Part shown: in pieces, positions 10,623 to 61,755 of the stretch
Position numbering within the stretch: position 1 is the first letter of the stretch
Layout of the letters: each line of letters opens with the position of its first letter
Source: Octopus vulgaris
Lineage: Eukaryota
Reading direction: 5' to 3'
NCBI GenBank assembly: GCA_951406725.2
Contig: OX597814.1
Location: forward strand, 128,402,001-128,466,000
Length of the DNA stretch: 64,000 bases
Program-made: the position numbers and the translations under genes
The notes under the pieces: model-generated
The model's input: only the letters and a program-made list of their open reading frames with translations
What the model was told of the DNA's origin: nothing
The model's database searches: none

Positions 10623-11010
10623 TTACGTTGACAAGAGGTGTTATCCTGAGGTTTGGTGATAAAAAGTCTCTCCAAATCTTAAAAATCTTTTTTTTTTAGA
10701 ATTCTTGCAAAATAAAGGTTCTGCTCATTGATTAAACATGTCTCAATTCCAAAATATCTAACAGTTTGATATTTCAAATCTTCAAGATCTAATCTTCCTA
10801 AACTTTTTTCATAAACATAGAATAATTTAGGAATCTATGAAATAAAGTTAAATTTCGTAAAACCATAAAAAATATATTGACCAATATACAGTTCTGTTTA
10901 TCTTTTTTTAAGGCCAACTTTTTATGTAACTGTTCCGTGTTGTGCTTTACGTATATTCTCGAATATGCTTCTGTACTATTTCGTTTACACATTTCCTTTT
11001 CTCATTTCAG

Positions 11011-12159
11011 TCGTTTCCGAATGTGTCAGACGTCGGTGAATATCTGGAAGGCCTTAGTGCTCAGTCGGCCAAACGAAATCTTCCTGTTATCTTATATTTG
11101 GCATTCTTGATGATCATTGGTATTTTTGGAAATTCCCTCGTTTTGTACGTCTACAGCTACCGCTTTAAGCGATCGTCTTCTGTATATTTTATCATATCTT
11201 TGGGAATATTTGACTTATTAGCTTGTGTTATTGCAATACCAGTAGAGATCTACGATATCCAGCATAAGTATACGTTTTACAGTCCAATTGCTTGCACTTT
11301 GGTACGGTACTGTGGTTCTTTTGTCCAGTATTCTTCTGTGTATCTTTTGGTTGGAGTAGCCATAGATCGCTACATCAAGATATGCTATCCTCTCAAAATG
11401 ATATCACCCAAAAAAATAAAATGGATGTGTGTCGGAGCAGCAATTGCTGGAGTGATTTCGTCGTCACCAACTTTTTTACTTTATGGCATAAAAAAAGAGA
11501 AAACTCCTCACCCAGACATTCACGGTGGTAATTGTTCTATTGCTCAAAAGTACTCCAGAACTCTCTTCGAAATGATATATTTTTTGCTGATGTCCGCAAC
11601 ATTTGTTGCTTGCGTGCTCTTGATGATAATTCTGTACAGTCTCATATGGTGTACTGTAAAACGTCGTCGTGGTTCGGTTATTGGCGATTCAGTGAGGAAA
11701 ACTAGTGAGACAGACAGCACCAAACGTATGTATTACAAAAAACAAACGAGTGTCAACAGTGACGATGACAACAATTCTGTCTTTCTACCAAACAACCACA
11801 GTAAATCGTCCAGCAAGCGACTTCGGAGAAGAATGAGTAGCGTTTCTGCTGTTTTGAAAAAAATCAAAGTTACCCGTACAACAGTTCTGCTCTTTGCTGT
11901 TACCCTTGCTTTTATTTTGAGTTACTTCCCATCAGTCGTTGCTATGGTTTATTTGAAGAAAATCCCTAAATACGAATTACTTTACACGTTTTTCGTTAAA
12001 TTTTCCTTCATGAATAACGCCATAAATCCTATAATTTATAGTTTTTTAAACGTAAACTTCCGAACCGAATGCAAGGAATTATTGAAAAGGTGTTACTGTG
12101 GCAAGATCAAACCTCCTTCAAGACAGACATCAATGGAAACAGAAGAAGACGTGAAATAA
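11011..12159 (+). CDS. Class A (rhodopsin-like) GPCR, peptide-receptor-like (CCK/orexin-receptor-like orphan), main coding exon
   Basis: Polypyrimidine tract plus CAG acceptor (tttccttttctcatttcag) ends at 11010, in frame with the ORF. Seven hydrophobic segments; TM1 GN, TM2 LGIFDLL, TM3 C...AIDRY, ECL2 Cys, TM6 SYFP, TM7 NPIIY, helix 8 NFR; stop TAA at 12157-12159. Confidence 0.93.
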   Translation, partial: SFPNVSDVGEYLEGLSAQSAKRNLPVILYLAFLMIIGIFGNSLVLYVYSYRFKRSSSVYFIISLGIFDLLACVIAIPVEIYDIQHKYTFYSPIACTLVRYCGSFVQYSSVYLLVGVAIDRYIKICYPLKMISPKKIKWMCVGAAIAGVISSSPTFLLYGIKKEKTPHPDIHGGNCSIAQKYSRTLFEMIYFLLMSATFVACVLLMIILYSLIWCTVKRRRGSVIGDSVRKTSETDSTKRMYYKKQTSVNSDDDNNSVFLPNNHSKSSSKRLRRRMSSVSAVLKKIKVTRTTVLLFAVTLAFILSYFPSVVAMVYLKKIPKYELLYTFFVKFSFMNNAINPIIYSFLNVNFRTECKELLKRCYCGKIKPPSRQTSMETEEDVK

Positions 12160-36445: not shown

Positions 36446-36493
<48 letters not shown>

Positions 36494-36668
36494 ATAATAA
36501 ATATTAGGGAATGAATCCAAAATTACAGGGAAAAATCAGATTTAGGGTTAAATCCAATTTTATAGTAAAATATTATATAATATAATTCGAGACAAAACCA
36601 CTATTTTAAGACCAAACAAGGAAAGACTTAATCAATACATAAAATTTTAATATAAATTAAATAAACCG

Positions 36669-36712
36669 CCACTACAAATGTTTCATGTCTGCTACCGACA
36701 ATCTTCAGGTGG
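36669..36712 (-). ncRNA. Minimal type I hammerhead ribozyme at the 3' end of the Penelope-like element
   Basis: Minus strand: CCAC-CUGAAGA-U-UGUC-GGUAGCA-GACA-U-GAAAC-AUUU-GUA^-GUGG. Confidence 0.75.
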
Positions 36713-38939
36713 ATTTTCGATCTAAAAATATCAATATTTTAAAATATAATTTAAAATAATTTAAAATAATAAAATTATCAATGAAAGAATATAAAAAAAT
36801 AAAATAATAAAATAAAAATATAATCTATATATAATCTATATATAATCAATATATAATCTAAAATAAACCCTATAAACAATTGAATATAAAAACCTATTAT
36901 AAAAGTTCTCATATTTAAAAATGTACAAAAACCAAAAAACAACAAGCAAAAAACAAAAAACAAAAACCAAAAAACCAAAAAAACAAAAAACAAAAAATAA
37001 ACTATATATACACACACATGCTCATACACTCAACACATTACTTATTCATACTTCCTCACACACACATACAACACTCAATTCATAAACAATATACATATAC
37101 CCGCTCACACATACATATACATACACATACATACAGAACACGATATATACCAATATATAAACACCCACACCCATACAGATAAATAAATTACGCAAACAAT
37201 CACACACACACACACATTCACACATACATAAACACTCAAAAGAAAACCAAAGAATTCTTAGCACGTGGATATCAAACATTTAAAAAAAATTATGAATGGA
37301 AATGAAATCCATACATACAAGTATAAATATAACTATACAAACCCTAACACAATACACACAAATACACACACATATATACACACACCCACAAACATAACCA
37401 TATACACACTCACACATACATATACATACGTACAAGTCTCGATACAAACAAACTTTAATAAAACGACCATGATAAACGAAAACTCATACATATTAATATA
37501 TATATAAAAGAGTGTGTACACGCAGACGGGTGCAATCACACGCACATTCAAAACTTACATATATACAAGTGCATAAATAATCACACCCAATTACATAGCA
37601 CTCATACACTCCCACATCTACACTTACACTTGTACACTCTCACACATACATAAACACCCATACCTACATACAAAAATTCTTATTAAAATAATCATGATAA
37701 ATAAAATCCATACATACAAGTATAAATATAAAGATACAACCCCTTACACAATACACACAAATACACACACATATATACACACACCCACAAACATAACCAT
37801 ATACACACTCACACATACAAATAATATGTACAAAACTCGATACAATCAAATACGCACACGCACACACATTCACACATACATAAACATACAAAAGAAAACA
37901 ACATTTCTACACATAATACGATATATAAAATACTCCATAAGAAATCAGATTATCATAAGTAACAAGATTAACAAAGGAGAAAAATAGACATACCTTCTAA
38001 TCAGTATCAAATTTTGAAGTGAATAACTTTATCCGTTATTACAATAAACAAAAATTGCGTTACCATGGAACCGAACATATAAAAATTATTAGCGCTACGT
38101 AAAACAGCGTCTTTAAAATTATGAATGGAATATAAAATTCTTAGCGCGTAGTAAACAAACGTAAATTAAAAAATTATGAATGGATATACAAAACTTTCTA
38201 CAAATTCTTTAAAAAAACCATAAAAAACGAAAACTCATATAGATATTAATATATATAAAAAAATGAGTGTGTACACGCAGACGGGTGCAATCACACAGAC
38301 ATTCAAAACTTGCATGTATACAAGTGCATAAATAATCACACTCAATTACATAGCACTCATACACTACCGCATCTATACTTACACTTGTACACACGCACAC
38401 ATACATACACACCCATACCTACATACAAAATACTTATTAAACTAATCATGATAATGAAGTCTATACATACAAATATAAAGATAAAGATAAAACCCCTTTC
38501 ATACACAATACACACAAATACACACACATATATACACACACCCACAAACATAACCATATACACACTCACACATACATATACATACGTACAAACTCGATAA
38601 ATACACTAATATTCATTCCCACACTCAATAAAATATTAAGTAAATACAAAAACAAAGAAATACCAATTAAATACTAACTATAATTAAAGTCTAAACTATA
38701 TAACTAAAAATATATATATGGTACTCTAAACTAAAAACAAATTAATCTACAGTAACCTTTAATAGGGGGCTATTAATTTTATTAAATTATATATCATTTA
38801 TGAATGAAATCCATACATACAAGTATAAATATAACTATACAAACCCTAACACAATACACACAAATACACACACATATATACACACACCCACAAACATAAC
38901 CATATACACACTCACAAATACATATACATACGTACAAAT

Positions 38940-39745
38940 CTCGATAAGATTTTCTAATTGGAGTTCAGATAAAAGATAAATACCTACTAAATCAGTAGCT
39001 TGTGCAGAATCTGGTGCTCCCATAGGTATATCAAAACAATCTCTAGTATCATTCCTAGCCCATAATTTATTTTAAAATTTAATGAGCGATTTCCTAGCCA
39101 TTTTAATTACATTAACTTCTTCACGTGACGTTCCCACTTTATTCATTGCGAAAATAAGTGCTTTATTAAACACAATTTCATTAATAGAAGAATAATAATT
39201 ATCTATATCTATTTGAATAAATTTAAAACGATTTTTATCTTTAATATTATTAAACCATCTCAATGTATTGTTATTACTAAACCATAATTTTAAATAATTA
39301 AGTTTATTTAATTTATTGATATATTTATCTAAAATAAATTTACTTAATTTACCTAAGTCAGATTTACATGGGCAAATTAATCTAACTTTAGGGTCTGAAT
39401 AAAAATTATCTTTATGGTCTTTAAGAGTAATTCTGGGGTTCAAAGGTACATATGGTTCAGTTTTATTATCCAATTCATATTTTAACATTACTAATTTAGA
39501 GGCCTTATTAATATTATAAAGTATATCATCTAGAACAATTTTATATTTTTTAATTATTTCTTTCCCTAAAAGTTTATCATATAAATTAACATCTAATTTA
39601 TATAAATTCCTAGTTTTATCAGATTGTACTATAATACCATCCATATTTCTCATATCTTTAATTTTAATTGCTAGGTTTCTTAAATATTCATTATTTCTAT
39701 TTGGGTATTTATAGAATTCAATATTTTTTACTACCTTCCATATAA
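38940..39745 (-). pseudogene. Penelope-like reverse transcriptase fragment
   Basis: Motifs SDKTRNLY, ITLKDHKDNF, VRLICPCKS, FIQIDIDNYYSSI (motif A), FDIPMGAPDSAQ (motif B). One in-frame TAA at 39072-39074; breaks before the YxDD motif. Confidence 0.85.
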
Positions 39746-41247
39746 TTATATTAAAATGGGTTTGTGGAAAAACTAATTTAAATAAAAAGAGTTCTTGGTA
39801 GTGAAAAGGTTGGGGACCACTTAACTAAGCATTCCAGCTATGACCATCCCAACTTCTAATGGGATATTTGACTACTATTTTCACCAGGTTGAATGAGTGT
39901 TGAAAGGCTTTCTCGTTGGTTGATATACCTATAGGTCAAAACCTTAGGGTAAGATGTAGCGAGGAAGAACCGAGAGAGTAACAATTTTGGGAAGAAAGAA
40001 TTTAGAAGTTGCTTAAAGCAGAGCCTAGGAAGTGATGCACAACAGGAGAGACGAAAGAAGAGACAGGTGGAAGAGGAGGATATGCAACTAACTAGTTCAG
40101 AGGACCAGTGCCTGTTGTAGCAAATATAAAACAATCAGAGAAAGGAAGATATGTATCTTTGATCTAGAGGCACATTGATGAGTTATACATCTTTTAGCAT
40201 AACTTTGGTGAAAAAGATAACCAAACTTAATATGCACACACACACTACCCAAGTGAATGTGTTTCTTTATGTCTCTTTTACTCTTTTACTTGTTTCAGTC
40301 ATTTGACTGTAACCATGCTGGAGCACTGCCTTTAGTCGAGCAAATCGACCCCAGGACTTATTCTTTGTAAGCCTAGTACTTATTCTATCAGTCTCTTTTG
40401 CCAAACCGCTAAGTTATGGGGACGTAAACACACCAGCATTGGTTGTCAAGCGATGTTGGAAGGACAAATATATACACACACATAAATATATATATATATA
40501 TACATATATACGACCGGCTTCTTTCAGTCTCTGTCTAACAAACTCACTCACAAGGCTTTGGTCGGCCCAAGACTATAGTAGAAGACACTTGCCCAAGGTG
40601 GCACGCAGTGGGACTGAACCTGGACCCATGCGGTTTGTAAGTAAGCTAATTACCACACAGCCACTCCTATGCCTGTCTATATGCGTTCTATAAATTGCTT
40701 CCACTTAACATTACAGTAGCAATATTCTGATTTCCGAACATACATCATAATATATTAAGAAATTCCAGCATCCTACCTCATGCTTCATCTTGCTAACCCT
40801 CTCACACTATCCCTCTCTGTTGACCTTCCACCCTCACTCTCTACATCATTCCTTCAATTTGCTTCCTTCATCATTTACTTACCATATTTGATGGCATAAA
40901 AGACACACACCAATTTCAACAGCACATATTCAGGAAGAAAAGATTTTAGTGCTTTAAAGCAAGTAATATGCCATAAAAAAAACAGTACCTTCAATCGGAA
41001 AGGTAACATCCTTCTCGTTCTACTCTCAGATGAAGGGAAAGGAGAAGAAATGTTACATTCTTCACTCCTCCCACTAATTAAACTTACCAAAACTCTTATG
41101 AACCAATGATATCAGTATAAACCATCACCAGTGCCATAAAATTCTAGACCTTGCCAAAAACACACATATCAAGCTCAGTGGAAAGAATTATAATAGAATG
41201 AATGTAATATACAACTGACTTTTTAAAGTGACTGAAAAGACACTTAC

Positions 41248-41409
41248 CTGTCCAATAAAAACTAAATACCCTGTTACATGTGAAGAACTGTTATTCCAAA
41301 CTTCCTCCATAGATCGGAATGTTGACCCAACATAGCAGTTCACAAGTGCTAAAGGCATCATTCCTATTACAGAAGCAATAGAGTAGACTGGCATTGAAAC
41401 ATGTGTAAG
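41248..41409 (-). CDS. TMEM64: TMEM64-like (DedA/VTT, SNARE-associated domain) internal exon, 54 aa
   Basis: Acceptor ctcttcaacag|CTT and donor CAG|GTAAGT, both phase 0. Peptide LTHVSMPVYSIASVIGMMPLALVNCYVGSTFRSMEEV...GYLVFIGQ resembles TMEM64 as I recall it (YLMASSVGLLP..LLNSYLGTTLRTMEDV..GYFVFCLQ). Confidence 0.85.
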
Positions 41410-41533
41410 CTGTTGAAGAGAAAGAAAGAGAGAAATAAAGAAATGCTTACTGAATAATAATATTTTAAATAAAAACTCAAAGAATTGCAATGTTTTCTAC
41501 CAAATATAACAATGTCCAGCTGATTCATCTTAA

Positions 41534-52150: not shown

Positions 52151-53154
52151 TCAGAGCTATAGTAGAAAAGTAGAAGACACTTACCCAAAGTAATATATGT
52201 ACATATATATATATATATATATTACTTTGGGTAAGTGTCTTCTACTCTTCTACTATAGCTCTGACCTAACCAAAGCCTTGTGAGTGGATTTGGTAGACAG
52301 AAATTGAGAGCAGTGCACTGTTTGAGTGTGTGTTTTAATGTCCATTTTCCATGCTGGGGCATGTGTTAGACAGTTTGATAGGAGCTGGCAAGGCCAGGAG
52401 TTACACTAGGTTCCACTGTTTTGGCATGGTTTCTACAGCTTGATGCCCTTCCAAGTGCCAACCACTTTACAGAGTGTAGTGGATGCTTTTTTTATGTGGC
52501 AGCAGTACACACACACACACTTACGTATATATATCTATGAATATATATATATGTGTGTGTGTGTGTGAGTGTGTCTGTTTGTGTGTCTTTGTCTTGATGT
52601 CACATGATAGTAGTAAATGAGTGTCAATGTCATATAGGCAGTGCAATTCGTACCCACAATTCTACAAAAACAGGGGAAATATTACCTTGCTTGGAAATAA
52701 GTAAGGGATGGCAACAAAGAGATTACATTAGTAAATTTGTCCAACCCATGCCAGTAAAGGAAAGTGTACATTAAAATCATGACAGTGATGCTGCTGAAGA
52801 TGATGATGGTTAATTACTCATGGACACCATCAACATAAAAATCAACAGTTAAGTTATAAAAATACTTGATGAAATGAGCACCAAAATATAATTAAACACA
52901 CTTATGTGATGAGGGAAAGATATCATTACCTAAGTGTAAATGACCAATATTATTTTAACAAGCCTATGCTTCACTGAGGGCAAATATATGCAAGGAGTTA
53001 TCTCGCATTTCGGCCAATATTTTTTTTCCTGTTCACTTCATTAGTATGCTAACACTAACTTAATTATTACTTCTTAATGTTAAGTTATTATCAACATAAT
53101 TTATGCAGCAAACATCATAAAGCCAACTAGTTCTAGTTTAGAGAAATCTTTTAA

Positions 53155-53191
<37 letters not shown>

Positions 53192-53242
53192 AAATCTTTT
53201 AAATTTCATATATATATATATAGAGAGAGAGAAATCTTTTAA

Positions 53243-53273
<31 letters not shown>

Positions 53274-53394: not shown

Positions 53395-53437
<43 letters not shown>

Positions 53438-53441
<4 letters not shown>

Positions 53442-54054
53442 ACAATCAAGGAACGGCCATAATAGGCCATTCACCCACTAGAAATAACAGCCAAAGCTTC
53501 AACCGCAAATAAAAGTTAATTCAGTAAACCAGGAGAAAATTTAAAAAACATTTACCCTGTAATTTCTTATACGATATACCGTTTCATCTGCTGATTAATG
53601 GTAAACTAACCTGATTAAATTAAATCAAGCCAATCTTCCACAGGCCCTCAGATTCTTCAGTAAGAAATAGCCCAAGACGGAACAGATATTTTCACGAGGC
53701 ATTTCCGACCTTGCCAAGTTTATATCTGACCTAAAATTTTCAAATCGTCGCACTCGCGCCAAATTTATCGGCAGCAAATAAATATAAGCCGTCGATTCCA
53801 TTACGGAATTAACCAGAAAATTCATAATTAATCAATATAGGGTGGCAAAAAAAATTTTGTAGAATTCTTTTGCCACCAGCGGCCTAGTAGGAAAAAATTA
53901 AATAGTCATAGACCATTTTTAAGTTCAACATCAACAATCAAGGAACGGCCATAATAGGCCATTCACCCACTAGAAATAACAGCCAAAGCTTCAACCGCAA
54001 ATAAAAGTTAATTCAGTAAACCAGGAGAAAATTTAAAAAACATTTACCCTGTAA
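53438..54054 (-). mobile_element. Non-coding hammerhead-bearing retroelement (retrozyme-like or Penelope pLTR-like); 492-bp unit plus 125-bp terminal redundancy
   Basis: 53438-53562 is identical to 53930-54054. The hammerhead lies inside, the 3' end abuts (TA)n, and CpGs are retained. Confidence 0.7.
53562..53668 (-). ncRNA. Type I hammerhead ribozyme, intact core
   Basis: Minus strand: AUUUCUUA-CUGAAGA-AUCUG-(58 nt)-CAGAU-GAAAC-GGUAUAUC-GUA^-UAAGAAAU. Stem I 8 bp, stem II 5 bp, near-palindromic stem III. Confidence 0.85.
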
Positions 54055-54398
54055 ATTAATCATGCCCTGGCATGGAAAGGAAATAAACTGACATTTACTA
54101 CAGCTAATGCAGTGAAGCTTTAAATCTTTGTATGTTCACTTTGCAACCATGAGATCGAGGATTCAGTCCCACTGTGTGGAACTTTGGGCAAGTGACTTCT
54201 ACCAGAGCCCTGAACCAACCAATAACATGTGAGTGACTTTGATAGATGGAAATTGTATGGCAACTCATTGTGGGTGTATCATCATCATCATCATCATTTA
54301 ATGGTCCACTTTCCATGCTGGCATGGGTTAGATGGTTTGACTGAGGACTGGCAAGCCAGATGGCTGCATCAGCCTCCAATCTGATCTGGCAGAGTTTC

Positions 54399-56597: not shown

Positions 56598-59500
56598 TTA
56601 TTGACAAAACACATTTTAACAGCAGTGAAACCACAACTTTGCTGGTTGAAAAGTGCAGTTAGTTGATGATGGGCACTATAGACAATGGATATAAAATACA
56701 GAAAACTCGGGAAGAAGCCGTTAAACTAGATCTAAGATTGCTGGGCTTCGGGGATCTCTTTTACTCTTTTACTTGTTTCAGTCATTTGACTGTGGCCATT
56801 CTGGAGCGCCGCCTTTAGTCGAGCAAATCGGCCCCAGGACTTATTCTTTGTAAGCCTAGTGCTTATTCTATCGGTCTCTTTTTGCCGAACCACTAAGTTA
56901 CGGGGACGTAAACACACCAGCATCAGTTGTCAAGCGATGTTGGGGGGGGGACAAACACAGACACACAAACATCTACACACACACACACACACGTACATAT
57001 ATATATATATACGACGGGCTTCTTTCAGTTTCCGTCTACCAAAACCACTCACAAGGCTTTGGTCGGCCCGAGGGTATAGTAGAAGACACTTGCCCAAGGT
57101 GTCACACAGTGGGACTGAACCCAGAACCATGTGGTTCATAAGCAAGCTACTTACCACACAGCCACTCCTACGCCTACAGAAATGCAGAAGTGAAATGCTC
57201 CAAGCAGACATTAAAACAGATGATGATGATAACAAAGACAATGACAGTGATGAAAACAGAGCTGATAGCAAATTAGATACTGATAGCAGTGTTATGGAAA
57301 AATACAACAAAAATGTGTGATTTATGTAGAAAACAATTTCTGGGTTGTACATCTTTTTGTCTTATGTTAGATTTAATTCTAAATATCAATTTTCACTTAA
57401 TGGTTTCTAAAACTCTTGATACATTAGGAAAATTGGCTTCCTAATATTAAGCTTAAATTTTCAAGAGGACACATACAAGCAAATTTCTTATCATTTTTTT
57501 TTATGTATGTAAATTAACAAATAATCATTAAATTAACAAATAACCATCAATATTCCGGCATTTCTATTCATCATGTAATAGAAAATTATAGCAAAGCTGT
57601 TACCAAAAAGGAAATAGAAATGTTATGATAGCATCAGCATATTAATTAGTTCTCAGATGTCTATTGTCATAACAAGAAAACCATAGGATGTGTAAGTAGA
57701 TTAACTTATAAAATCTCTTAAGAGAACTGTTTTCAAATATGTATGTATGTGTGGATGGATATAAATATATATATAATTACTTTTCACAAATGAATCCTGA
57801 TGAGGCAATTATAGATAACGATCCAGTTTCAAGGTCACAGACAGATAAAGAATATTTTGTTAACACAATTTATTTCCTTCAACAGTGATACTGAAATGAA
57901 ACAATTTGCGATAAACATGACTGAACTAAGAGCTTTACTTCTTATTCTCTACGTAACATGTAATAAATCATAATCTGACTGTCTTTTTTGCTTTTTCTTA
58001 CTGAATGGATAGCTAAAACTGCCAACTATTTCCTTTACAGTCTTGGTAACAATATGGTTATAGCAAAACAAAATCTGTAATAATATTTTGTTTATTACAA
58101 CACTACAGGCACTCAATTGATTATGACGATGAGGGTTCGATTTTAATCAATCAGTGGAAGTGCCAGCTTGTGAAAGTAATGTTCATGAAGCTGAGCACTT
58201 CAAAGACATGTATACTTAACATAGTTCCCAGGGAGATTTGACCTGACACAAAATGTGACAAAACTGGCTCTTTGAAATACAGGTAAGACACATTTTTACC
58301 AGCTGAGTGAACTCATGACCTTCTAATCATGAGATGATTACCTTGACCACTAAACCACATGTCTTCACTCGTCGTCGTCGTCATCATTATTATTATTTAA
58401 CATCCGTTGTCCATGCTGGCAAGCTGGAAAGCTGCACCAAACTCCATTGGCATTGTTTCCAGCAGTAGAAACTGTGCCAGATCAGACTAGAGTCTGGTGC
58501 AGTCTTCCAGCTTGCCAGCCCATGTTCAATGTTACACTATGCTTCCAAAGAGAAATAACCCCATTTGAGCTATTATTTTTGAGTGAAGAAGTTCACTTGG
58601 AAATTACACAGTTTCAAGTTCAATCCCATTGTGTGGAACCTTGGGCAAGTGTCTTCTACTATAGCCTCAGGCTGACCAATACCTTGTGAGTGGATTTGGT
58701 GGACAGAAACTGTGCTGAAGACCAATGTATACATATGTAATGAGCATGTGTTTCTTTGTGCTTATATCTGTTTTCTACCTTACCAATACTTGACAACTTT
58801 GAGTCTTGTGCCTATAATAGAAAGGATTATTGTTACTAACACTATAATTGACCTTCATCCACTTTTTCCAGTTACCTCAATCTGTCATCTATCTCATTAT
58901 CATTAAAATATTTAGCATAATGAAATAATGTCTTGTATATACACACATACACACTTATATATATGACTCTGAACCTTATGGAAGAGATGACAAAGGACTG
59001 AGATATCTGGTGCCTTGCAGTATTCAAGACATTAGATATTTCCTTAACTTTAGTATAATGATAAAAAAATTCCAGAGGTTTAGTAAAAATGAAGAGAATT
59101 GTTTCCCTATACAATAAAGTTTTCAGACCTATGAGGGAGGCTGAAATAGTTGTCAACCCACAAGTAATAACAGCCAAATCTCCCTCAAATATGCTTTGAA
59201 GGAGACTGCCTTAAAAAAGAAAAATACACTGGCCAATGTATTCAGAAGTATATTTTGCCAGTAAAGACAGGGTGGTCATGACTGGAAAATTTTAAAACAA
59301 AACACTACCATTGCACCTATAAAAATAGCAATTCTCAACGGGTTAGAAATTGCAGCCAAATATCTCCCTCAAATCACACCCAACTGTTATGAAAAATTAA
59401 TAACAATGGACAATGTAGTCCTCCATACATTATGGCTGAAGAAAGACAGATTGTCATAGCAAGAATACCTTTTATTATACATCTGCTTAATGACAGCTGA

Positions 59501-60118: not shown

Positions 60119-61755
60119 TGTATATTTAAAAGTTGAAAACATGGTTGGACACTAAAAGTACCAAGTAGTGTAGAAATAGGACAATCAAGAAAGCAGTTGA
60201 GTGTCAAAAACATTGAGTATATAAGAAAGTTTTGAAAGTGTTTTGGCATGAAAGGCATTGACTGATGTAGATAAATAAGATGACTACATTGGGATGAATG
60301 TCTTACATAAATGGATGATGTATGTTAAGAGAAGTTTTCTTATCAATAGTTTATAGCAGAAGGTATTCATGGGAAAACTGAGAGTAGGCTAGAGGGGTTC
60401 TAAGAAAAATAGCCATTAGGGATGACATGCTGCCAGACTGACATGTATAAAAAAACTTGTGTAATACAAACCCATTCAACTCTTACCAGCATGGGATAGT
60501 AGATGGTAAACACATCAACAAGGTCATTCAACTAGCTAGATATAACAGCAAAGTTTACCTGAAGTCATACTAACATTTTAAAAATAAAATGAAGATAATA
60601 TTAAATAAGGTAATCCTAGGTACAACTATGGCTGAAAAATGACAATATAGTTATGCTTAGAAAGTTGTTTTTTTAATATAGATCTGTCTGACAAAGGCTG
60701 CCCTGGGGCTAAACTACAACAGCCAAGACAAGAAATGTTAAAATTAAATACAATAAAGATAATCCAAAATTTTAAGGAAAAGCCACATATTCCACATCAT
60801 TCTAGATTATTTGTCTATGGCACCATTTAATCTAGTTTTAGATATATAAGGATTTTTTTTTAATGGAAAAAGGTTTCAGTTTCACTAAAGTTAAGGACAG
60901 CTGTTTAATAAAAAGGAGTTAAGGTAAAAAATGTACTTTTATTCAATTCTTCTTTCAGATAAATCTCAGTGAAAGACAAAATAAAAGAATTTATCAGGAC
61001 TTTATATGGTGTCTCATTGTTCACTATGTAAATTTCAGCCCAAATTCAGCAACAGGAATAAATAAATAAATGGGTAAAAAAAATTTTTTTTTTAAATGAT
61101 AAACAGTTATTTAATCTTCCTGGAACTGTCAAGTTGACATCATGTACAACTTTGGCTACAAGCAAATAGTTTTGGCTCTGTGACCTTTTCACTGTAGTTA
61201 AAATGGAAGTCAGCAGCCTGGGAAGTGCAAAACAAGAGGGCAAATGAAATACTAATTGATAGCAAAATGTGAAAACACCTGAAAGTTACAATTAGACAGG
61301 AGACATCAGATGTCAAAATCTAAAGAGAATTTGAAATCCCAAACAATAATCTACGTTACTTGATACTTTATAAACACAAAGTATACAATTGCAGTTTGTT
61401 TGTTGAAGCCATTAAACAGTAAAAACTATTTAAATACCTTCAAGCTAATAATCCTTTTCAGCCTGGTTATGTATTCAAATAAAAAAAAAAAGATTTAGAA
61501 TAATTACTTTGCATTGCAACAATAATGATGAAGCCTGGTAGAGGCATTGTAATGTAATTCTATGTAATGCCACAAATTGTTAAGCATTTAAACCAAACTC
61601 AAAACTGAAGTGTGTTTACAAACAGTAGAGAAGTTCCCTCATAGATACCTGGTGACCTAAACACTTCAAGGAGAAAGATACAGAAAACACCTCAACAAAT
61701 TCTGTCTAATCTGATCTATGCAAGCATGGAATGGAAATCAAATGACGATGATGAT

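Follow-up and report, generated by a model that had tools for sequence, protein, structure and literature searches.

A noncoding insertion at a (TA)n tract

An insertion on the minus strand of an Octopus vulgaris intron, built on a 492-nt unit that is repeated in part, raises the question of what kind of element it is and how it was copied into that place. The window is the whole 64,000-nucleotide stretch that was analysed, and the unit is numbered in the RNA sense, with 1 at window position 53931, 492 at window position 53440 and the predicted self-cleavage site at 362/363. The insertion (53440..54054, minus strand) is a single arm of 1.25 units, that is, one 492-nt unit plus 123 nt. Its 3' end, at a position that we call site A, abuts a (TA)n target tract (53401..53439), whose final two bases also match the unit, giving an AT microhomology.

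A first-pass annotation of this DNA had reported a 125-bp identity at an offset of 492. We recovered it as an exact match of exactly that length between a 3' copy (53438..53562, minus strand) and a 5' copy (53930..54054, minus strand); BLAST lengthens it by 3 nt with one mismatch. The 5' copy starts 7 nt past the hammerhead cut position, in agreement with the annotated 5' end of the element at 54054. The repeat had also been called a terminal redundancy, and this stands only in part: the repeat is real, while as a terminal feature it dissolves into the last quarter-unit of a concatemer, the fixed feature being the 3' end at (TA)n. The longest stop-to-stop frame within the element is 68 codons, so the element has no protein-coding capacity, as had been supposed. 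The observed/expected CpG ratio is 0.97 in the element versus 0.49 and 0.38 in the two flanks, which bears out the remark that it keeps its CpGs inside a CpG-poor intron. The 492-nt unit folds better than all shuffles (z −4.3). In a search for the empty site, the unique flank 54074-54107 had no coverage in 4 of 4 runs.

The unit contains a predicted type I hammerhead

The annotation had placed a complete hammerhead on the minus strand, and all helices and the core could be located (53562..53668, minus strand), the assignment resting on sequence, folding and covariation. Helix I pairs 53668-53661 with 53569-53562 over 8 bp and is followed by the core CUGAAGA (53660-53654), with GAAA at 53585-53582. 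Helix II (53653-53649 with 53590-53586) closes a 68-nt arm. A short helix III with a palindromic loop then leads to the GUA triplet, after which the hammerhead consensus predicts self-cleavage between 53570 and 53569 (53569..53570, minus strand; unit 362/363). The 121-nt hammerhead region outfolds 200 of 200 shuffles (z −3.8). A covariance-model search with the Rfam hammerhead models, which had been proposed as a check, returned no match at E ≤ 1, probably because of the long helix II; the element thus points to hammerheads that Rfam misses.

For covariation we used 22 of the 51 distinct variants, most of them recurrent. Across them, 99.5% of 748 cells are paired, in a set whose collecting motif pattern itself selected intact cores. 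Helices I and II show double changes, two pairs in all and both within closely related variants; since 65 of 500 shuffles reach this number, we count it against the explanation proposed below. Core position 7 takes all four bases and the triplet is GUA or GUC. The helix III loop is TATA in 207 and TGCA in 26 of 239 cases, palindromic in both. Taken from sequence, the pairing, the double changes and the palindromic loop argue in favour of a hammerhead kept by selection.

The computed self-duplex of helix III with a second copy reaches −15 kcal/mol, and the hammerhead is predicted to act as a pair through this palindromic helix; a dimer form of metazoan hammerheads has been described (PMC4209133). 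In the computed circle, the hammerhead fold is in the minority, with a helix I pair probability of 0.01-0.03, again a point against our explanation. The best fold of the circle blocks the ribozyme and the active fold lies 1.9 kcal/mol higher, a difference that would let circles persist.

The unit belongs to a young, dispersed family

A genome search with the 492-mer, the check suggested earlier, found a multi-copy family rather than the single-copy sequence that would have spoken against a retroelement. There are at least 224 DNA matches in the genome itself, spread over many contigs (39 of 691 candidates scored), and the 126 longest matches listed have 94-100% identity. The exact hammerhead pattern occurs 847 times (control, 0), many of the matches at 492-bp spacing, and exact junctions between site A and (AT)n occur 422 times. 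Junctions between (TA)n and a second fixed end, site B (see below), gave 616 forward-strand matches, partly from sister subfamilies at 85-99% identity; the reverse-strand count of 1764 is inflated by overlapping matches. With hundreds of near-identical copies, the family is young, dispersed and multi-copy, as the annotation had proposed.

Relatives extend further. Nineteen runs under five organism codes hold at least half of the unit's words, and a relative of about 478 nt at 71% identity, found by chance (L224:1-732; also L266), keeps both hairpins described below, both start sites and the palindromic helix III. In a DNA run under another organism code (X7), 14005 contigs carry a related unit that shows about 20 common differences, and their summed depth is very high; that organism perhaps carries a much larger expansion, depth being no measure of copy number.

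Most copies have two arms with two different 3' ends

We compared 83 loci: 38 best hits, 24 further hammerhead loci (contigs 1 and 2, in position order), 20 site-B loci and the window copy. The site-B loci were taken in order along contig 1, skipping known ones or those near listed hammerhead or site-A matches, and are sister subfamilies or short arms at 85-99% identity. Most of the 83 loci consist of two arms joined head to head at variable 5' ends, their 3' ends pointing outward into (TA)n. An inverted, 5'-truncated copy joined head to head is thus a feature of the family that the window copy lacks.

The arm 3' ends fall at one of two positions 108 nt apart, unit 492 (site A) or unit 103-108 (site B). 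Site A (53440..53451, minus strand) lies 11 nt after hairpin A (unit 460-481; 53451..53472, minus strand), which is conserved in relatives down to 71% identity; the window copy also contains an internal site A at 53932 and a second hairpin A at 53943-53964. Site B (53824..53835, minus strand), the fixed 3' end of the other arm, lies 108 nt downstream of A and is internal in the window copy. The hairpin 17 nt upstream of it, hairpin B (unit 55-91; 53841..53877, minus strand), had already been noted in the annotation and is present. In a consensus fold of nine units, both sites are predicted to be unpaired, each just 3' of its conserved hairpin, and the 12-mers at the two sites agree by eye at 9 positions.

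If each arm chose its site freely, half of the loci would be mixed. By strict automatic typing, both ends could be assigned in 51 of 83 loci, of which 50 are A+B, one is B+B and none is A+A. Leaving aside the loci that were selected for their end type, 63 remain, with 44 A+B versus 1. The flanks of the sole B+B locus are inverted copies of each other. One end is untyped in the other 32 loci, some through small junction changes and some for want of a second arm, and we count these against our explanation; several apparent single arms carry a second arm of 14-20 nt ending at B. In the 71% relative, too, one end is at A and the other at B. Both junction types recur as loose ends in contigs from DNA runs, a second sample included, and are therefore not assembly artefacts. 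Arms that form arrays reach 14 units, and either arm may be the longer (2727 versus 450 nt; 506 versus 3468 nt). We think it quite likely that an insertion arises from two separate target-primed starts.

This two-armed architecture with two start sites is invisible from the window copy alone, which is a minority form with only the A arm left. Like L179 and L190, it is a lone A arm without (TA)n on its 5' side; both this and the lack of a clear second arm weigh against our explanation. At its 5' junction (54055..54063, plus strand), 9 nt are like the end of site B at all but one position and have no (TA)n after them; they are either a vestigial second arm or plain flank.

Both arms appear to be copied from one monomer

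Arms were compared after leaving out pairs sharing fewer than 150 sites and homopolymer sites. The A and B arms of one locus differ by 0.26%, and arms of different loci by 2.66%. Identical arm pairs make up 22 of 40 within loci versus 104 of 1549 between loci, and in the youngest set 16 of 26 versus 82 of 646. The remaining 18 of 40 loci, with 1-10 differences between their arms, count against our explanation.

Counted over loci with at least three units, variants were carried by every unit in 65 cases, by several but not all units in 12 and by a single unit in 100. Since a mutation arises in one unit, it can come to be in every unit of an insertion only through a one-monomer bottleneck. Among 28 locus-private variants seen in at least two units, fixation extends to both arms for 8 (one locus accounts for 6) and to the only arm that covers the variant for 11, while 9, a further point against our explanation, are partly fixed. 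Passage through the cut site is seamless, 262 of 269 anchored passages carrying no extra bases. We therefore dismissed jumps of the template from one linear monomer to the next in which bases are added. We also dismissed a record of RNA editing in the copies, as A>G accounts for just 3 of 19 fixed private variants, no excess.

Together, the shared locus-specific variants and the seamless passage point to one monomer as template, probably a circle. A circle provides the one-monomer bottleneck, and for a single generation the same pattern can result from a multimeric transcript of a parent array whose units are all alike; on balance, we think it rather likely that the template was one circular monomer.

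Assembled contigs of three runs that we guessed to be RNA cover the whole unit. One run (X4) yields a single self-closing contig of 523 nt (492 + 31), which a tandem transcript would give as well, since contigs cannot distinguish a circle from a tandem. Runs X2 and X5 show (TA)n junctions too, and X6, under the same guessed label, covers unrelated repeats as DNA would.

Arm 5' ends cluster just past the predicted cut

The 30 nt after the predicted cut contain 25 of 135 arm 5' ends, where 9.3 are expected from the fitted arm lengths; the 30 nt before the cut contain 9 and the next 30 nt contain 3. The densest 30-nt interval starts at unit 361 (P = 0.0003). All three samples contribute (13, 3 and 8 arms, plus the window copy), and a 5' end near the predicted cut is therefore a family trait, not a peculiarity of the window copy, in which the reverse transcriptase (RT) would have gone round once and halted 7 nt short of the cut on its second pass.

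Weaker clusters lie at hairpin A (15 versus 8.1 expected) and hairpin B (13 versus 6.9; P about 0.02 each, uncorrected). These imply that structure also stops the enzyme, and a stall at helix I would look the same as a cut end. The main cluster may thus reflect either the cut end of the template with some trimming or RT stalling at helix I. The idea that the copied RNA starts at the self-cleavage site gains statistical support from these counts, and stalling at helix I would explain the cluster too.

Penelope-like elements of the genome as candidate partners

The window itself contains a 5'-truncated, rearranged Penelope element of the Hydra clade (36491-39824, minus strand), which retains an RT fragment (39824-39075), has a small hammerhead of its own (about 36712-36669) and ends 3' at (TA)n 182 nt after the cut. 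Its family has intact ORFs of about 840 aa elsewhere in the genome. The label Naiad does not fit this remnant, as the RT is N-terminal and the motifs are those of Hydra.

Intact ORFs, about 780-1090 aa long, occur in several young Hydra-like families and contain RWK-like, DKT and CxCX5C motifs, which are features of the Hydra clade (PMC8557442). These families carry hammerheads, several with a long helix II, and insert in (TA)n. Their two ends lie about 77, 115-120, 150 or 155-160 nt apart, and two-armed loci combine one short and one long end in 11 of 12 cases, the pairing rule that also holds for the unit. The exception, L110, is an inverted duplication running into the flank.

Some further observations on these elements are as follows. 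At least five young Hydra-like families carry hammerheads (L099, L108, L110-L117, L226, L246-L263), most with a long helix II; some of the ORFs have asparagine-rich inserts, and by eye the proteins resemble Hydra-1_Obim. The only same-end loci that we met, L056 and L110, are inverted duplications that reach into the flanking DNA, being either secondary fold-back events or assembly errors. A young family that we take to be Neptune-like from its domain order (L152:944-6160) has a 479-codon ORF upstream of a 781-codon RT-nuclease ORF and a tail of 33-40 nt; a scan of L152 found no canonical hammerhead. A short head-to-head insert at L121:198-322, which has unequal arms, is flanked by (TA)n and bears no relation to the unit; it resembles a minimal pair of Penelope-type ends from some other family.

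We found no sequence in common between the unit and 150 Penelope loci (80 + 20 + 50; 150 scored of 5204, of 6136 and of 9837 candidates in the protein searches), apart from separate retrozyme copies in two of them. The annotation had reasoned that homologues always attached to a Penelope ORF would reduce the element to a fragment of a Penelope terminal repeat. None of the 83 loci is joined to such an ORF as judged by their ends, with ORFs scanned in 20, and no Penelope ORF lies upstream of the site-B loci (20 of 20). Two apparent chimeras proved to be separate inserts: in L121, a lone 57-bp arm lies about 1.1 kb from an old nuclease fragment, and in L224, about 750 bp of (AT)n separate the 71% relative from a Hydra fragment. 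With no RT/GIY-YIG ORF joined at these loci, we rejected an autonomous Penelope element or an attached terminal repeat. The 108-nt tail fits the Hydra range, yet the unit has no sequence in common with the 150 Penelope loci; we lean, somewhat cautiously, towards a Hydra-clade element as the partner.

A copying scheme and its alternatives

By its sequence features, the family is a non-LTR retrozyme with a Penelope insertion footprint. The head-to-head inverted copy and the one-end tail that mark Penelope mobilisation are both present, the tail, at 108 nt, being longer than published. That a retrozyme was moved here by a Penelope-type enzyme is, in our judgement, very probable, and the family, the (TA)n ends and the head-to-head arms fit the earlier suggestion of a non-autonomous ribozyme retroelement mobilised by a Penelope-like RT. 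We consider it likely, with less confidence in the whole than in that core, that this young, protein-free hammerhead family reached its (TA)n sites through a Penelope-like RT/nuclease, whose clade is probably Hydra, with a likely circular 492-nt RNA as template.

In this scheme, transcripts of multi-unit copies would be cleaved by their hammerheads, and the resulting monomers would be closed into circles by ligation. A Penelope enzyme, probably a dimer, would cut both strands of (TA)n, the target in which the copies lie. Each DNA end would then prime at A or B, in keeping with the fixed ends and the pairing of one A with one B. Each copy would circle the same monomer for up to 14 units and stop at a variable point, often just past the cut, as the shared variants and the clustered stops suggest, and the two 5' ends would be joined head to head, the arrangement seen in the insertions. 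A more specific version is possible rather than probable, and we put it forward tentatively: a Hydra-type enzyme dimer would hold one 492-nt circle at the two hairpin-flanked sites, one subunit at each, prime from both (TA)n ends and roll round the circle, and the hammerhead, mostly folded off, could cut the template during copying and so end the run. If this were true, the one-sided tail of Penelope elements would be the distance between the sites of the two subunits, and the family would be a genomic record of missing steps of Penelope transposition.

The closest alternative keeps the enzyme and the two primings and replaces the circle by a linear, multimeric RNA that was transcribed from an array already in the genome and kept its hammerheads uncut. 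Genomic arrays as long as 14 units could supply such a transcript, three private variants are partly fixed in both arms, 5' ends cluster past the cut as a cleaved linear end would make them, and the anole element uses unprocessed RNA in vitro (PMC11167929). Against this stand the excess of fixed over partial variants (65 to 12), which needs a one-monomer bottleneck, the 8 private variants (6 in one locus) fixed in both arms, and the self-closing 523-nt contig of one guessed-RNA run, for all that a tandem transcript is equivalent. We regard the linear multimer as unlikely.

Two other accounts fare worse. A single cDNA could have given rise to the inverted arm by fold-back self-priming or by twin priming, a route suggested for Penelope with an antisense template. 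Self-priming is how head-to-head Penelope inserts have been interpreted in print (PMC3846280), identical arms would follow from it, and 9 of 51 loci have no more than 25 nt between their inner ends (5.3 expected). In the other 42, however, the inner ends are far apart, either arm can be the longer, as in the arm lengths given above, and both outer ends are fixed and abut (TA)n, which makes this account very improbable. Least probable of all, in our view, is that the unit is the detached terminal repeat of an unseen autonomous Penelope, its arrays grown locally by recombination. Xenopus retrozymes are related to Penelope terminal repeats (10.64898/2026.07.22.740005), and our Penelope search scored part of the candidates; against it, the insertions number in the hundreds, are dispersed and have their own fixed ends, the 20 site-B loci have no Penelope ORF upstream, and the arms are seamless multimers of a closed unit. 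A terminal-repeat origin as such is compatible with the circle-based scheme; what we reject is a lack of independent mobility.

Relation to known retrozymes and Penelope elements

Metazoan non-LTR retrozymes are noncoding, AT-rich tandem units, each with a type I hammerhead (PMC7229834; 10.64898/2026.07.22.740005). Linear and circular monomer RNA characterises the class, circles have been demonstrated in metazoan cases (same sources), and 1 of 9 Xenopus retrozyme dimers was cleaved in vitro (10.64898/2026.07.22.740005). Penelope elements have been proposed to copy retrozyme circles (PMC7229834), and retrozymes have been linked to Penelope terminal repeats (10.64898/2026.07.22.740005). The octopus family shares the noncoding, AT-rich tandem units with a type I hammerhead and the proximity to Penelope-like elements as proposed mobilisers. 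It differs in its unit of 492 nt, compared with about 170-400 nt in tested cases (51-972 in the 2026 survey), in a helix II that is a 68-nt arm, and in dispersed, inverted, two-armed copies in (TA)n with two fixed ends. Such arms or target sites are not described in the accessible text of these sources, and the terms "inverted", "microsatellite" and "target site" occur 0 times in PMC7229834. The plant LTR retrozyme, with a type III hammerhead in its LTRs and a 4-bp target duplication (10.64898/2026.07.22.740005), was set aside, the hammerhead here being type I and the repeat part of a concatemer. A literature search that covered few subscription journals found no cephalopod retrozyme, although the supplement of the 2026 survey may list relatives, and no report of a rule of one arm per site.

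Next to a Penelope element there can be a second copy, inverted and truncated at its 5' end, and a tail at just one of the two ends (PMC8557442; PMC3846280), and the inversion has been read as self-priming (PMC3846280). With Hydra-clade Penelope elements, including Hydra-1_Obim (PMC8557442), the octopus family shares the (TA)n target, a hammerhead near the 3' end, partial tandems, a neighbouring inverted copy with a truncated 5' end and a one-end tail. Unlike them, it has no ORF and a tail of 108 nt, compared with the published 30-40 bp, and the unit shows no nucleotide similarity to the sampled families. The Hydra-like families of this genome, with tails of about 77-160 nt, are themselves far above the published 30-40 bp (PMC8557442).

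Work on a purified Penelope-type protein, for which a dimer is predicted, has shown that it cleaves both strands, extends them and uses two internal starts (PMC11167929); the hammerhead of its anole element was dispensable for insertion in vitro. This anole Poseidon shares with the octopus family the two internal starts that define the tail, an AT-rich target and, in the scheme above, cutting and extension of both strands by a probable dimer. It differs in showing no strand difference in start site and, in the accessible text, no pairing rule, whereas the octopus family has one arm per site in 50 of 51 loci, and in being autonomous with a linear template, whereas the octopus unit is noncoding.

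In the literature compared, the copying of retrozyme circles by Penelope enzymes and the origin of head-to-head arms with a one-end tail have been proposed in print and not shown in genomes. The octopus family, a retrozyme with a Penelope footprint at the level of sequence, gives countable footprints for both: it puts figures on the pairing of each start site with one arm, on the common template of the two arms and on the stops at the cut site. It also offers a 492-nt substrate with two mapped start sites, and the same genome holds intact candidate enzymes.

Host gene and other features of the window

The element lies in an intron upstream of a minus-strand exon with a VTT-domain hit (41251..41445, approximate bounds), in sense to the host gene. 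A second minus-strand VTT-domain exon lies about 19-20 kb past the end of the window; the two exons bracket the element, and both hits are below the Pfam curated cut-off. We call the gene TMEM64-like, a name given by likeness, and the earlier placement of the element in sense within the TMEM64 pre-mRNA agrees with the two flanking exons. The insertion therefore puts a predicted self-cutting RNA in sense within an intron of a TMEM64-like gene.

Elsewhere in the window, a single open frame of 409 codons (10930-12159, plus strand) encodes a rhodopsin-family receptor (PF00001, E 7e-33). At 53140-53273, 170-300 bp from the element, a motif of 17-20 nt occurs three times, each followed by (AT)n; these are possibly short 3' stubs of another (TA)n-targeting element. 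Finally, unit 433-468 resembles a motif at 59156-59181, 59344-59360 and 60521-60556 (best E 0.002), which is part of an abundant octopus repeat; the likeness reflects either chance or old kinship.
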